In this document: in pieces, positions 29,205 to 59,492 of the stretch
Position numbering within the stretch: position 1 is the first letter of the stretch
Layout of the letters: every line of letters begins with the position of its first letter
Source: Podarcis cretensis
Taxonomy: Eukaryota
Reading direction: 5' to 3'
Assembly (NCBI GenBank): GCA_951804945.1
Contig: OX638154.1
Coordinates: forward strand, 51,832,001 to 51,896,000
Length of the DNA stretch: 64,000 bases
The notes under the pieces: generated by a model
The model's database searches: none
Seen by the model: only the letters and a program-made list of their open reading frames with translations
Told to the model about the DNA's origin: nothing
Program-made: the position numbers and the translations under genes

Positions 29205-30890
29205 TATTTTGTTTACAAACAATACATGGTGAAAGCCTGCACTAGATTCTCCATTATTCAGAAAGCCTCCTTTCTCCTACCAATGTCTATGCAGAAGGCT
29301 AAATTTATGCTTCCCTATATTTAATGCTCAGAGAGTGCAGCTACACTTTTTTAAAGCTGTTATTTCTTTTTAATTTTGCATATTTGCAAAAGCATTTGGC
29401 ATACTCCTCACAGCTAGCTTTCTAAATCCCCAGCCTATCTCTGATCCATTTAGGGGAAACCGAAACTGTGCTTAAGGGTTTGTTTCAGAGCCTTTTGCCT
29501 CTCTTCCAACATGGCAGTTTCTCGTGTATCCATCTCACATGTATTATTTCTAAAAGCTGTTCTTATAAAGAGGTTTTACAAGCTTACTCTTGATTTGGTA
29601 AAATATCTGTTTATATAATGTTTCTTTTAAAAATTTGTCCCCTCAGGATCTCAGGAGGGGTGTTTATATTAAACAGCATTTATGTAAATCAGTATGATTA
29701 TAGAACATGTTGGTTTGCTGATAATTTCAGAGTCAGAAAGCAGTGGAACAGGCAGAAAAATACATGGGCAGCCCTGTGTCTCACAAGTCCTGTGCGTGGC
29801 GTAGGTTGAGAAGACTGTTTAGAAAAGAGTAGTTATTTTTGGCATTTTCTTCATGTTGTGGACAGTCGGGAACTGTTGTTTCTAGGAAATTCTGACATTA
29901 GGTTTAAAGATGGAAAGGCCTGTTGTGAAACAACACTGGACTTTGTTTAATGCATTGCAAGTGGAATTCCTGTTAAGTGTAATAGAAGAGTGCTATCTGG
30001 AATAGTTTCCTGCCTAGATTGCCATAGAAGTAATTAATATAGGCTTTGCACTTCCCAAGTAATGGCTTTTTGGGGAGGAGCTCTAGTACATAGTGTACAA
30101 AATGCACTTAAAACGGGTGACAGGACTGCCTTTGAAGTACTTGAACTGAGGCACATGCTCCCCTTCCCCAGCGACATTAAATTGAGTTTACAGAGAAACA
30201 AACCAAATGAACCAAATGAATTATTCTGCTTTGATTCCCAAAACAGTTTAGATGTGTATGGTTTGTGACAGGACTTGGTGGTGATAAGATGGCAGTACCA
30301 TCTGAACAGAGGCAGGGCTAGTTTTTCAAGTGCTTGTCACTTAAAAGATTAGATTAATAGTGCCTATGTCTTGGAGTGGTACAATGAATGGCTCAAGATA
30401 TGGGGGTGCAGCAGGTATATTGTACCCCTGCCTGTGGTCAAAGCGGGGTCTGGGACCTCAGAAAACATTTGCATATATTGTATGAAGACTAGCATTTACA
30501 TTTTGTGTAAGCCTACATAAAACACCATGATATTTCTTCTCCCAGAGCATAGGTTAACTTCAGCTTTGTGTTTGGACTTAACTATTAATACCAGAGTAGG
30601 AGGGAACACATGACCCCTCGACTTGCATATGTCATTCTATGCAAGTCTAGTATTATATCTGAACCAAGGCCTTTGACTGCTTTCCAGTTCTCTGCTAGTG
30701 AGACTTAAGTTTGGCTTGTATTAATAAATTGTAATCTACAAACTGTAAAGTACCGTATTTTTCGCTCTATAACACGCACCTGACCATAACACGCACATCG
30801 TTTTTAGAGGAGGAAAACAAGGGAAAAAACATTCTGAATGAAACAGTGGATGTATCATTTTTGTGCTTCATGCTGTGGCCACAGACATGT

Positions 30891-32504
30891 GATCTGATGG
30901 TGAATTTGGGGTGACCCAATGCAAAAATCCTGAGAATCCCTGTGGATCCATGCTTTGTAACCACGTTTTTGCACCATTGCAGCCCCAGGCAACAGTGGGT
31001 GCGTGATTTTTGGGGGGCAGGCTGTAGCCATGGACATGCTATGTGCTCTGATGGTGAATTTGGGCTGACCCAATGCAAAGATCCATAGGATCCATGTGGA
31101 TCCATGTTTTGTAACCACGTTTTTGCACCATTGCAGCCCCAGGCAACAGTGGGTGCGTGATTTTGGGGGGGCAGGCTGTAGCCATGGACATGCTATTTGC
31201 TCTGATGGTGAATTTGGGCTGACCCAATGCAAAGATCCTGAGGATCCATGTGGATCCATGTTTTGTAACCATGTTTTTGCACCATTGCAGCCCCAGGCAA
31301 CAGTGGGTGCGTGATTTTGGGGGGGCAGGCTGTAACCATGGACATGCTATGTGATCTGATGGTGAATTTGGGGTGACTGAATGCAAAGATCCTGAGGATC
31401 CATGTAGATCCATGCTTTTTAACCACGTTTTTGCACCATTGCAGCCCCAGGCAACAGTGGGTGTGTGGTTTTTGAGGGGCAGGCTGTAGCCATGGACATG
31501 TTATGTGATCTGATGGTGAATTTGGGCTGACCCAATGCAAAGATCCTGAGGATCCATGTAGATCCATGCTTTTTAACCACGTTTTTGCACCATTGCAGCC
31601 CCAGGCAACAGTGGGTGCGTGATTTTGGGGGGGCAGGCTGTAGCCATGGACATGTTATGTGATCTGATGGTGAATTTGGGCTGACCCAATGCAAAGATCC
31701 TGAGGATCCATGTAGATCCATGCTTTTTAACCACGTTTTTGCACCATTGCAGCCCCAGGCAACAGTGGGTGCGTGATTTTGGGGGGGCAGGCTGTAGCCA
31801 TGGACATGCTATTTGCTCTGATGGTGAATTTGGGCTGACCCAATGCAAAGATCCTGAGGATCCATGTGGATCCATGTTTTGTAACCATGTTTTTGCACCA
31901 TTGCAGCCCCAGGCAACAGTGGGTGCGTGATTTTGGGGGGGCAGGCTGTAACCATGGACATGCTATGTGATCTGATGGTGAATTTGGGGTGACTGAATGC
32001 AAAGATCCTGAGGATCCATGTAGATCCATGCTTTTTAACCACGTTTTTGCACCATTGCAGCCCCAGGCAACAGTGGGTGTGTGGTTTTTGAGGGGCAGGC
32101 TGTAGCCATGGACATGTTATGTGATCTGATGGTGAATTTGGGCTGACCCAATGCAAAGATCCTGAGGATCCATGTAGATCCATGCTTTTTAACCACGTTT
32201 TTGCACCATTGCAGCCCCAGGCAACAGTGGGTGCGTGATTTTGGGGGGGCAGGCTGTAGCCATGGACATGTTATGTGATCTGATGGTGAATTTGGGCTGA
32301 CCCAATGCAAAGATCCTGAGGATCCATGTAGATCCATGCTTTTTAACCACGTTTTTGCACCATTGCAGCCCCAGGCAACAGTGGGTGCGTGATTTTGGGG
32401 GGGCAGGCTGTAGCCATGGACATGCTATGTGCTCTGATGGTGAATTTGGGCTGACCCAATGCAAAGATCCTGAGGATCCATGTGGATCCATGCTTTTTAA
32501 CCAC
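30891..32504. repeat. 154-bp tandem repeat, ~10.5 units, with 616-bp higher-order duplication
   Basis: Unit starts (g[a/c]tctgatggtgaatttggg) at 30891, 31045, 31199, 31353, 31507, 31661, 31815, 31969, 32123, 32277 and 32431. ORF-track translations recur identically at a 616-bp offset. Confidence 0.97.
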
Positions 32505-32654
32505 ATTTTAAGTGGGGAGGGAAGGAAAAACACAGAAGGGACAAGGAGGCAGGAGAGGGGTGTGCAGAGAAGCAGCTGGCTAAGAATGCAGGAGAGGGGT
32601 ATAGGGAGGAAAGGAAGGCAAAAGTTTTCCCTCACCTACCCACCCAAGCCAGCC

Positions 32655-32656
<2 letters not shown>

Positions 32657-32690
<34 letters not shown>
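32657..32690. repeat. (CT)n microsatellite inside the MITE right arm
   Basis: Direct reading of the sequence. Confidence 0.95.
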
Positions 32691-32693
<3 letters not shown>

Positions 32694-35600
32694 GCATGTT
32701 TTCAGCTTTCCCCTCTGCTTGCCTGGAGGGGAGGGGCTTTCCCTGCTCTTTGTTCCGTTTGAGCAAACACAGCAAGGAAACAGAGATGGGTGGGCAGTAA
32801 GACCCTGAGGCAGAATGCCGGAAAGCAGCCGCTTCCTCTTTTCAAGTTTCCCTTCTAGGAGACGCGCGGTTTGATTTTTGCCTGCTTTTTTTTGCCTCCC
32901 CTTGCACTATTTGGCTCCAGGGACCACACATTCGCTCAATAACACGCACAGACATTTCTCCTTCCTTTTTAGGAGAAAAAAATCTGCGTGTTATAGAAGG
33001 AAAAATACGGTACCTTACCCAGTTTTGGATGTAATGATGAAATCTGGTTAGTACTTTATTAACAAGCAGATGCTTCTGATCTCCTCCTTGCAGCTGTTCC
33101 ATAGAAAGATGTGGGAGCATGTAAACCTAGGTTTGCTTCTATTCACATAGCACTATGGTTTAACTACAATATGCAAAGTAGACCTGGTATCAACCTTATT
33201 AGATCCTTAAGCACTTTTTAGAATTTTGTGGACCTGATAATACTCTTCTACAAAAATCAGAATTTATTTTAGCCTTAGTGGCAATGATTATAACTTATTT
33301 TTAGAGCAGTTTTGAAAAACCGCACATGGTTACTGCAGCAGGGAGAGAACAGGAAAAGGTTTGCATAGTGAAGAATACAGCCACATGAAGTAGTGGTTTA
33401 TTTTTATTTTTATTTTCACAGTAAGAGCTAAACTAGGAAATTATTTAAATTTGATGGCCATCACCGATCCGTGTCTCTTTCCCTTGTCTCGTGGTGACAT
33501 CTAGCTGAAGCAGATGTGTGATGTAATGCCATCGTGACCAGCATTTCTCAGTCCCTGTTCCATTTCATTTACCACTTCATTGACTGCTAAATGTAAGTGG
33601 TGAGTGAAATACTAAATGTGATGCCTCTTCAAGCATCTCCTTCAGCTAGAGGTTAACAAGAGACAAAGAATCATGGATTAGCATGGCCATGTGTTTCAGA
33701 TAATGTCTACCTCTGGCCCTGAATAAAGCTAGTAATATATTGGCTCTGATTCAGGCTCTGTCAGCGTTTAAGTTGCAAAGAATTATATCACTGGCACTTA
33801 CTATTTGATTGTTGTTTATTCCTTGTATCTGTGGACAGTGATGCTGAAAACTGCATTCTTCTTTCTGCCGGACATAATTCCCCATCCAATATGCAACCAT
33901 CAGCCTTCTGTTTTCTTAGTATAATCACTGCAGTTAAGACTGCTACCTGCGGAACCTGTTTGATGCCAGCTAATATTGTAAACAGTGTCCAGCAATGGAC
34001 TTTCCTCCCTCCTCTTCCTTTCATGCTTGCTTGTACTAAGGAAATTTGATCAACATGAAGCTTTGGCTGTCTGGCTGCTGTTACTATGTGTGAGACGGGT
34101 GGGAGAGAAAGGAAGACATACCAGCATACCTATGACAAAAGAGCATGTGCATATTTACACAGACTGAGAATTCACTCACTACTTTATGCTTCCTTTTTGC
34201 AAATTGTAAGCAGTAAATTCCCTCAGATTTTGCTTACCTTCTTTGTGTTTCAGAATACCCCGAAACTGCATCCCCTTGGCTCACTCATACTAGAAGCCTT
34301 GAGTGCTCCAGTAGGTTTATGGATCAGCTCTACTACACTCCAAAAATAGTAATTCAGCCCAGCTGCTTTCAGAGTAATATGTTAAATACAAAAAATGACA
34401 CTAACGTAGTGGTAATGATTAGACTTTATACCAATTTCTTTCAAACTGTTCCTAATATTCTGCTTCTCATTCGTAGGCAGACCTACGATAATGTGATTGC
34501 ATTGAAAATGTCACGTGAAAGGCGGTTTCTGTCTAAATTAAGTTCCAAAATACATAATAAGAAATGTCTTAAAATGTGACTACTTGTCTGTAATCATTGT
34601 GAAAAATGGCAAAAGGACTTAATTTTGCAGCCAGCTGTGTCCTAGAAAGATTTGATTATATTATACTTGTATTGCATGGCAGCAACTTGTCATGCTCTCT
34701 TGTTTGTTACCAAGACATTCACAATACTTAGCCAGGCTGTAACGGCAAGCTAATGTGTGTCTGTGTCCAATACTCTGAATGGTCAAGAGCTGTTCTTGTC
34801 CCTGGTCCTGGGTGCTGTACTTGGCAGAGAGAAGTGACTCTCATATGAAAGTCAAAATAGAAATATATTTTGGGTCAAACTGGGCTCTGAAAGACATTTC
34901 TCTCTAGTAGTCATTAATCTCCAAAAAAACAAGCTTTGGAACTAAGCCAGCTCATATTATCCAAAGCTCATATTATGCCTCATATGGCAAAATGCACAAT
35001 ACATTACTTGGACTTGATCAGACCAATTCCCTGTTCCCCATTTTTCTCCACTACTGGTTTAAAAACATGTGAGCAATATAAATTTAAATTCAGTCAGAGT
35101 TGTTGTTTCTCTTTATAAATATCCTAAAATTGTCACTTCCAACAGCTTTCTAGAGCATCCATAAATGAAGACCTCTGTAAATAGAGACATGTTTCCATAG
35201 CAAAAAAAAACAAGTGCTGCTCTGGTTTTGTTTTCAGTTTAAAACTTCAGTGTGTTTTTTTGGCCCTTGAATCCAGGCATCTGTGTGACAGCTGGCTTTC
35301 ATGGGCATCTTCTTCCCTTTAATATTCAGAAGACTAAAAAGGATGAAGGGTGAGCAGATAACAAGATCTAGTTCTTACGGTGGTGTGAACAGCCAGTTGA
35401 TGGTATGACTACAGTTGTGATAATGGTGAAGGTCTGATGTGGCACCCTCCAGGATTAGGGCAAGCTACCAAAATATACTTGGAGAAACAGGCAGTGTAAG
35501 ATGACAAATGAAACCTAGAAAAGGATGACTAAAGTGACTATCTGGCTCTCAAACAAACAAACAAATCATCACTAACAACCACGAGAGTGTATCTGAAAGG

Positions 35601-51611: not shown

Positions 51612-52758
51612 GTGAGTTGTCCACACAGGGGAGAGGAATAGGTGTTCTATAATTCTTTTCCTACTATGTGCAGTAGAGGTTTGCAGCACCTCTGGCCCTG
51701 TCAGATTCCAGTGTCCTTGGCACAATATGCCTCACATAAAAGACTAAGGCTGGAATTAGAAAGTATGGCAGATGTGGGGCCGCTGCTAAAAACAGCAGCT
51801 TCTTGTTTCATTCTTTCCCCTTCCGCAGTAGCAACTAATAATACAATGTGTGACATAAAATCATCTCATTCTGAGTTGCAAACAGCTAATGAAATGTAGT
51901 GGGAAAACCTGGGGCACACTGGCAAGACGTTAAATGTTTTTCCTTATCGGGGAGGCATAGGAGGATGTGGGACTACTGCTTTTCAGAACAGCCATTCTGA
52001 TATTGTCTAGTCCTGAACTGTAAGAGATAGAGACCCAGTTGCCAGTTTCTTGGTTTCCTGTTGGAAGGAAATTGTGGTGCAACGGTGACATCGCTTCATA
52101 TGTCGAGTACCCAAGGGCATTCAAGGAGCTCCTTTTCCAGAGTTGGATACCAAAAATTTTCATCTTCAAGCGCTTAGGGATGCTCTGGTTTGTGGACAAT
52201 TAGTTTCAGTTTATAAGGCAGTCTTGCTAGCACTACCTCATGAGCATGATTATACCACAAACTAAATTGTAGGTGAAAAGTTCTATGCACTTATGCTTTG
52301 TGATAAGCTTTGATGATAAATATCGGCCCACACCATAGTCCTAGTAGAAAATAACTACTTACCAGCAGTTCAATATGTTCTAGGAAAAATCAAGATAGTG
52401 TAGATGGATAAGAATGGGCACTAATAACTTCCTTTATATTTGTATTGAGAATAGTGGCTGGCTCTTTATTTGAGTGCTTAGCTTCTCACTTTGGCCTGTG
52501 GAAGAATCAGGAAACACTAAATTCTGAAATTCTTGGTTGCTCAGTCAGGTCTAATTGATCATCTCTTTATACACATTAACTCCAGAAGTTGGATGCAAGC
52601 AGTTTTAACTGTTTCACTGGCAGTTACGAGCTCTCAGCATATTTGCTCATGTCTGACTTTTGTTTAATTTTATAGTTTCTATCCTGTGTTTTTGCTACCA
52701 TTTCAAACTGAACTCTGGTGTAAATGCAACTGGCAGCTCTTCTCTGAACTCTCTGTAG

Positions 52759-52945
52759 GCTGAACTCTGCTCCAGTGAAAGGCTTTGAAAAGGATGTTGG
52801 TGGCAAGACAACAATGCGAATAACATACCCAGAAGGGGCCATCCAGAAACCAGAGCAATATGAAAAGGATTCCCTCTTTGTGCTGGCAGGGTTCAAGTGG
52901 CAGGATTTCAAGTGGCTGAAGTACATTGTTTACAAGGAAAAAGTG
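52759..52945 (+). CDS. ST3GAL3: ST3GAL3 internal coding exon (187 nt, end of sialylmotif L)
   Basis: Acceptor ctctctgtag, reading LNSAPVKGFEKDVGGKTTMRITYPEGAIQKPEQYEKDSLFVLAGFKWQDFKWLKYIVYKEKV, donor gtaagt. Overlaps ORF 52775..53113. Confidence 0.98.
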
Positions 52946-59324: not shown

Positions 59325-59492
59325 NNNNNNNNNNNNNNNNNNNNNNNNNNNNNNNNNNNNNNNNNNNNNNNNNNNNNNNNNNNNNNNNNNNNNNNNNNNN
59401 NNNNNNNNNNNNNNNNNNNNNNNNNNNNNNNNNNNNNNNNNNNNNNNNNNNNNNNNNNNNNNNNNNNNNNNNNNNNNNNNNNNNNNNNNNNN
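59325..59492. other. Assembly gap or masked segment (168 N)
   Basis: Run of n characters in the sequence. Confidence 0.99.

Follow-up and report, generated by a model that had tools for sequence, protein, structure and literature searches.

An ordered 154-bp tandem array inside a young Passer-type MITE family of a lizard genome, probably shaped more by loss than by gain of units

Introduction

Tandem repeats carried between the ends of small DNA transposons have been reported in both invertebrates and vertebrates. In the clam Donax trunculus, DTC84, a MITE (miniature inverted-repeat transposable element), contains central core repeats of about 156 bp in up to five copies (PMC3879986), and in Xenopus the Tc1/mariner-type miDNA4 and the Xmix/Xstir elements hold either a monomer or a variable array inside their terminal inverted repeats (TIRs), according to reviews (PMC12628747, PMC9659126). 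Here we describe an element of this kind at positions 30753-33010 of a 64,000-nucleotide stretch of the lizard Podarcis cretensis (assembly GCA_951804945.1, contig OX638154.1, 51,832,001 to 51,896,000), which we call the window. An original prediction, made from the letters of the window alone, had seen a Tc2-like MITE whose internal 154-bp array might act as a satellite "incubator", and had considered it a candidate for an undescribed system. Our analysis favors, with a probability of about 0.85, a young, non-coding, TA-duplicating MITE with Passer-type ends and an inherited, ordered 154-bp array in which losses of units far outnumber gains.

Three other described systems bear on this comparison. 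Passer (PS) elements of the pogo superfamily have TIRs shorter than 30 bp that start with CCGTA, duplicate a TA, share the target consensus AAGTACTT and encode a transposase with BrkDBD, HTH_Tnp_Tc5 and DD35D features (PMC7386202, PMC9976928). In Anolis, hobo_AC hAT elements capture other transposons (PMC3014272), and the satellites of squamates derived from short interspersed elements (SINEs) are transposon-derived tandem repeats that remain below satellite scale (PMC10702118).

Results

The window element is 2258 bp long and is bounded by 26-bp TIRs at 30753..30778 (forward strand) and 32985..33010 (reverse strand), which differ from each other at two positions and are flanked by TA on each side (30751..30752 and 33011..33012, forward strand). 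Tandem Repeats Finder (TRF) placed the array at 30887-32509 (10.5 copies of 154 bp, 95% matches). The TIRs, TA duplications and repeats of the original prediction are confirmed. The array (30887..32509, forward strand) is composed of unit variants that recur family-wide in a set order, and its ten full units are each exactly 154 bp long, with 0-15 base differences between them. Units 3-5 are the same as units 7-9, and an exact 701-bp run at a period of 616 bp (31112-31812) marks a recent block duplication of four units (616 bp) at 31112..32428, forward strand. Since only one private substitution was found across the 1540 bp of units, this copy is young.

The exact junction between the left arm and the array has 567 matches in the genome and none in the reversed control, which, together with an empty site in two related organisms, indicates that the structure of the element is not due to chance and that the array has been dispersed as cargo, as had been proposed. 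The search with the 138-bp left arm returned 1690 first-look candidates, and all of the best 40, which were scored, were 100% identical to it. Considering that the junction was exact in only 32 of the 38 copies found through the unit, we estimate about 700 young copies in the genome; no further one lies within the 64-kb window. In the main subfamily the arms diverge on average by 1.6% from their own majority sequence (n = 71). Of 79 parsed copies, 76 have TA on both sides; 64 show an A at -3 and 65 a T at +3, in agreement with the Passer target consensus. The family is non-coding, bounded by TIRs, associated with a target duplication and present in high copy number, as are MITEs, and its TIRs shorter than 30 bp that start with CCGTA, its TA duplication and its preference for palindromic AAGTACTT-like targets are those of Passer, which bears out the expected TA-targeting family of Tc2/pogo type. 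Copies range from a zero-repeat form of 722-750 bp up to 2286 bp in steps of 154 bp. Older subfamilies have left ends that are 83-93% identical, different right arms and mostly one or two units, and the unit must thus predate the current burst.

Unit number, which had been expected to vary among copies, was counted without bias in the 72 copies on contig C1 that have the exact junction. In the 69 copies that could be parsed it ranged from 0 to 8, with a mean of 2.9: no unit in two copies, one in 18, two in ten, three in 11, four in 14, five in ten, six in three and eight in one. The ten units of the window copy fall in the long tail of this distribution, and copies picked for their length reached ten units and, in one case, 28. 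In an alignment of 378 units, the state of the diagnostic sites follows the position of the unit, which yields six variants in a set order. For 54 copies of the main subfamily sampled without regard to length, deletions (forward jumps along the series) alone fit 46, while eight need a duplication (a backward jump); none retains the unchanged six-unit series, and in 50 the number of units is below six. No backward jump was needed in 29 of the 37 copies with at least three units, against 2.3 after shuffling, or in 19 of 27 against 7.5 when only the middle units were shuffled. Copies with one or two units consist of hybrid units with several different breakpoints, and block duplications of 2-4 units also occur in L100, L106, L186, L187 and L188. 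Since deletions alone fit so many copies, the array likely erodes for the most part and sometimes grows. The phylogeny of the arms was rejected as a predictor of unit number, given that nearest arm neighbors share it in 10 of 59 cases against 9.1 after shuffling, although with a star-like tree this is a weak test.

The empty TA site, which the original prediction had suggested looking for in related genomes, was found in sequencing runs of two related organisms. Of 19 runs with matching DNA, four were aligned to the region. Among the matches listed, run X1 contains one 1929-bp contig and run X19 one 2264-bp contig that span both flanks without the element and with a 5-base overlap; they cover 30501-30754 and 30499-30754, respectively, together with 33010-33700, so that the flanks are joined over a single TA. 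In both runs the matches to the two flanks were assigned to one contig by their equal size and depth, and in flanking sequence the organisms (A for X1, F for X19) are about 1% divergent from the window. In runs X15 and X18, two samples of organism E from one study, contigs enter the TIR from both sides. The insertion is therefore recent and lineage-restricted.

An autonomous partner with the same TIRs was also sought, and likely ones were found. A search of the genome for the DDE_1 domain gave 119 matches, and among 20 loci fetched according to match length, 11 TIR-bounded elements could be delimited. Six of these 11 share the first 91 bp of the MITE at 91-94.5% identity (30753..30843, forward strand, corresponding to the 3' end of the partners), and ten share the other end at 69-82%; in the window copy the last 82 bp of the right arm (32505..33010, forward strand) are 70-82% like the partner 5' end. 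All 11 partners, as distinct from the MITE, have open reading frames (ORFs) with D-35-D spacing. In two of them, L144 and L145, the ORF is intact, encodes 425 aa and shows this spacing, and the two are 98.8% identical to each other, and the three partner proteins that were scanned, L145 among them, all passed the Pfam cut-offs for BrkDBD, HTH_Tnp_Tc5 and DDE_1. Identity to L145 reaches 97.9-98.8% in the youngest partners, which gives them an age similar to that of the MITE with its mean divergence of 1.6%. By its ends the MITE thus belongs to the Passer (pogo/Tc2-type) group as a non-autonomous member, Tc2/Kanga-type being an older label for the same group, and the shared ends and similar age suggest that a resident DD35D Passer-type transposase likely moved it. 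A derivation of the unit itself from the transposase elements was rejected, as it had no BLAST match in 50 DDE_1 loci. Partner L143 has tandem arrays of its own near the 5' end (79, 118 and 197 bp), as does L146 (60 bp). At G000:C2:117.9-118.8 Mb, about nine clustered open frames with DDE_1 (533-753 aa) are possibly tandem Tigger-derived genes.

Arrays outside transposon ends were not found in the assembly, from which satellites can be missing. The first 100 exact unit cores (contig C1, 0-76 Mb) fall into 39 loci, of which 38 are enclosed by both Passer ends, and one (L075) belongs to a different, hAT-like carrier. Genome-wide, 1562 unit cores compare with 1160-2010 expected from the 567 dispersed junctions, so that hidden units could number no more than a few hundred. 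For a motif shared between old and young units, 2389 matches were counted, below the prediction from its density on C1. Two long-array queries, with the best 40 candidates scored in each, revealed no array longer than 28 units, and the window copy was among the next-ranked. The longest array (28 units, 4.3 kb, 86% identical, at G000:C19:22.594 Mb) ranks first and keeps both ends; it is an older-subfamily copy (L183:3480-8822) with a SINE-like insertion in its left arm. Contig C19 comes after the smallest chromosome-sized contig in the numbering, and one might guess at a sex chromosome. Eight incomplete copies that had appeared to be arrays without ends were re-examined, and most had ends after all, with L075 and L217 lying in the hAT-like carrier and L212 being without a right end inside the 4 kb fetched. 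Hence a free satellite made of this unit was not found in the assembly.

In L075 (G000:C1:13.475 Mb) and L217 (C6:5.125 Mb) the array lies within a separate element whose TIRs are short and whose target duplications measure 8 bp, as is typical of hAT transposons. The junction between this carrier and the array has 27 matches in the genome, and 22 of these copies (L075, L217 and L233-L252) were fetched; 17 of the 22 are complete, each of these being flanked by a perfect 8-bp duplication that differs from copy to copy. The left parts of the carriers are 95-99.6% alike, and the copies hold 1-6 ordered units together with the right-hand portion of an older Passer MITE. The family would thus number about 27, with a left-truncated, array-bearing Passer MITE as its cargo, which likely reflects one capture event followed by hAT-type transposition. 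In L217 the carrier is itself inserted in a third MITE.

Other features of the family and of the window were also recorded. A degenerate copy of the last third of the unit lies at the edge of the left arm (30840..30890, forward strand), with 75-79% identity to unit positions 97-144 as read in sister copies whose left arms are 98-100% identical to that of the window copy, and it may point to an old internal duplication. Within the right arm, a (CT)n microsatellite occupies 32657-32691, and the TIR motif is repeated internally at 32931-32949. Separate tandem duplications of 168-219 bp occur in the right arms of L071, L076, L083, L102 and L175, and the family therefore duplicates internal DNA at several lengths. 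L096 and L109 are inserted in opposite orientations at the same TA of a repeated target, which is presumably SINE-like. Three copies within 26 kb (L100-L102, G000:C1:70.728-70.754 Mb) and, at L088, two related elements about 200 bp apart possibly reflect local hopping. In the neighborhood of the window element, sialyltransferase (GT29) exons are found about 20 kb downstream (at 51.5 kb and at 52748-52945, forward strand); their best PDB match is an alpha-2,3-sialyltransferase, and we take them to be ST3GAL3-like. An inverted repeat just downstream of the element (33484-33666, 38-nt arms, 82%, 107 nt apart) is possibly an old small MITE, and a run of 168 N bases occupies 59325-59492.

Discussion

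The distribution and order of the units are best explained by an array that was inherited at a greater length and is mostly being lost. Several observations weigh against this interpretation. The order of the six variants was derived from the very copies that were tested, a circularity that shuffling reduces and does not remove, and the direction of change, from a long founder rather than by stepwise growth, rests on parsimony. Unit number and divergence were not significantly correlated (rho = -0.18, n = 38; rho = -0.02, n = 59, the latter with low power), which bears on the timing of change. Besides, gains do happen: one older copy has 28 units, and in two of 16 long arrays (L106 and L187) private variants are common to duplicated units, which suggests some growth in place. 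Finally, the right TIRs of partner and MITE differ at 4 of 26 sites, and the two have only their ends in common.

In the incubator reading, arrays would lengthen within the MITE, shed the transposon ends and turn into satellite DNA, with long free arrays either unassembled or present in sister species. In its favor, block duplications have given 8-10 units in several copies and 28 units on C19, a second, hAT-like vehicle has already received the array, and the same route has been proposed for miDNA4 (PMC12628747). We nevertheless regard it as unlikely, since the net change is loss, nearly all sampled unit cores lie between Passer ends, the single other locus is in the hAT-like carrier, the counts of both the unit core and the motif shared by old and young units leave little room for hidden arrays, and the long-array queries ended at 28 units. 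Equally doubtful is a relay in which the unit would be a satellite precursor that originated in a Passer MITE, grew to 28 units, jumped to a hAT element and escaped as a satellite in unassembled heterochromatin or in sister lizards.

An assembly error could have duplicated the four-unit block in silico, the true allele of the window copy having six units; the block is perfectly identical over 701 bases and the array length is known from the assembly alone. This too is improbable, because identity is expected in a copy so young and similar block duplications occur in five other copies, and even so the result for the family would be unaffected. That selection maintains the unit for a function, such as nucleosome positioning, a structured RNA or a transposition enhancer, is considerably less plausible still. 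In all young subfamilies that were sampled, the edge parts of the unit, at least, are retained, and the length of the unit had been remarked to be close to that of a nucleosome core, yet three zero-repeat copies (L033, L164 and L177) have transposed with intact TA duplications, and the hint from length lost its force in view of the 60, 79, 118, 168-219 and 197 bp duplications held by the family and its partners. A structured RNA was rejected, as the Rfam matches were all sub-threshold and confined to the GA/CT-rich right arm, with the array giving none, and the unit had a folding z of 0.21. A coding role was likewise rejected, given that Pfam had no match in three frames of the element, among the 60 window ORFs scanned of 184, nor in the one array-spanning frame examined.

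The unit probably arose long ago as an internal duplication within an ancestral MITE, and the founders of the current burst may have carried about 6-7 units. Array length likely changes by in-register misalignment between units, with losses far commoner than gains. The near-universal change in young copies, together with the missing correlation with divergence, favors events tied to cut-and-paste repair; we thus lean slightly towards template misalignment during repair or copying in the transposition cycle, a process consistent with general knowledge of such repair, with slow slippage after insertion being nearly as probable. The window copy would represent a rare gain by block duplication of four units, and a hAT-like element would have taken up one left-truncated MITE copy and spread the array further.

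Compared with described systems, the agreement with Passer comprises the start and length of the TIRs, the TA duplication, the AAGTACTT-like target and, in the 425-aa partner, the same domains; the printed ends of lacertid PS elements in Table S1 closely match, by eye, those of our partners (PMC9976928). The lacertid PS entry of that supplement likewise has repeats near its 5' end. The window element differs in being non-coding and in having no more than about 90 bp of each end in common with the partner. In that paper, the unit motifs are absent from the supplement and the word "MITE" from the main text (PMC9976928). With DTC84, as far as the available text describes it, the lizard MITE shares variants in a fixed order at any copy number, a one-sided microsatellite and short arrays only, whereas DTC84 is pearl-like, has a putative AA duplication and has no partner named there (PMC3879986). 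The lizard case adds a TIR family, a partner, an empty site, about 180 examined genomic copies and a countable balance of loss and gain. Similarly, miDNA4 and Xmix/Xstir are vertebrate MITEs with a monomer or an array inside the TIRs, but the models for Xenopus end in free satellite arrays (PMC12628747, PMC9659126), while none was found for the lizard array and its net trend is loss. Like hobo_AC, the second carrier is a hAT-like lizard element that has captured a nested transposon and multiplied it (PMC3014272); the cargo here, in contrast, is a tandem array still changing length (1-6 units) in its new vehicle. SINE-derived squamate satellites are also lizard tandem repeats of transposon origin below satellite scale, but they derive from retroposons and not, as here, from within a DNA transposon (PMC10702118). 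Our literature searches found no description of this family, although a Dfam or Repbase entry may exist. The family thus appears undescribed in the literature found, whereas its kind, a MITE with a variable, ordered tandem array, is already in print (PMC3879986, PMC12628747), and the expectation of an undescribed kind of system did not hold: unit number varies between the ends, as in DTC84 and miDNA4, and ordered variants are common across copies, as in DTC84.

Taken together, these results provide a clean, young and countable reptile case for the model leading from MITE to satellite, in which position-marked units record each deletion or duplication, and the counts, with unit loss in most copies, oppose the incubator idea. 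If the relay were nonetheless true, the rates of gain and loss along the way from transposon to satellite could be read directly, copy by copy, from about 700 dated copies in two superfamilies. Moreover, the hAT-like vehicle with the same array offers a natural replicate in which a link between length change and transposition can be examined, and the presence or absence of the elements and their unit number are usable as markers among close relatives.

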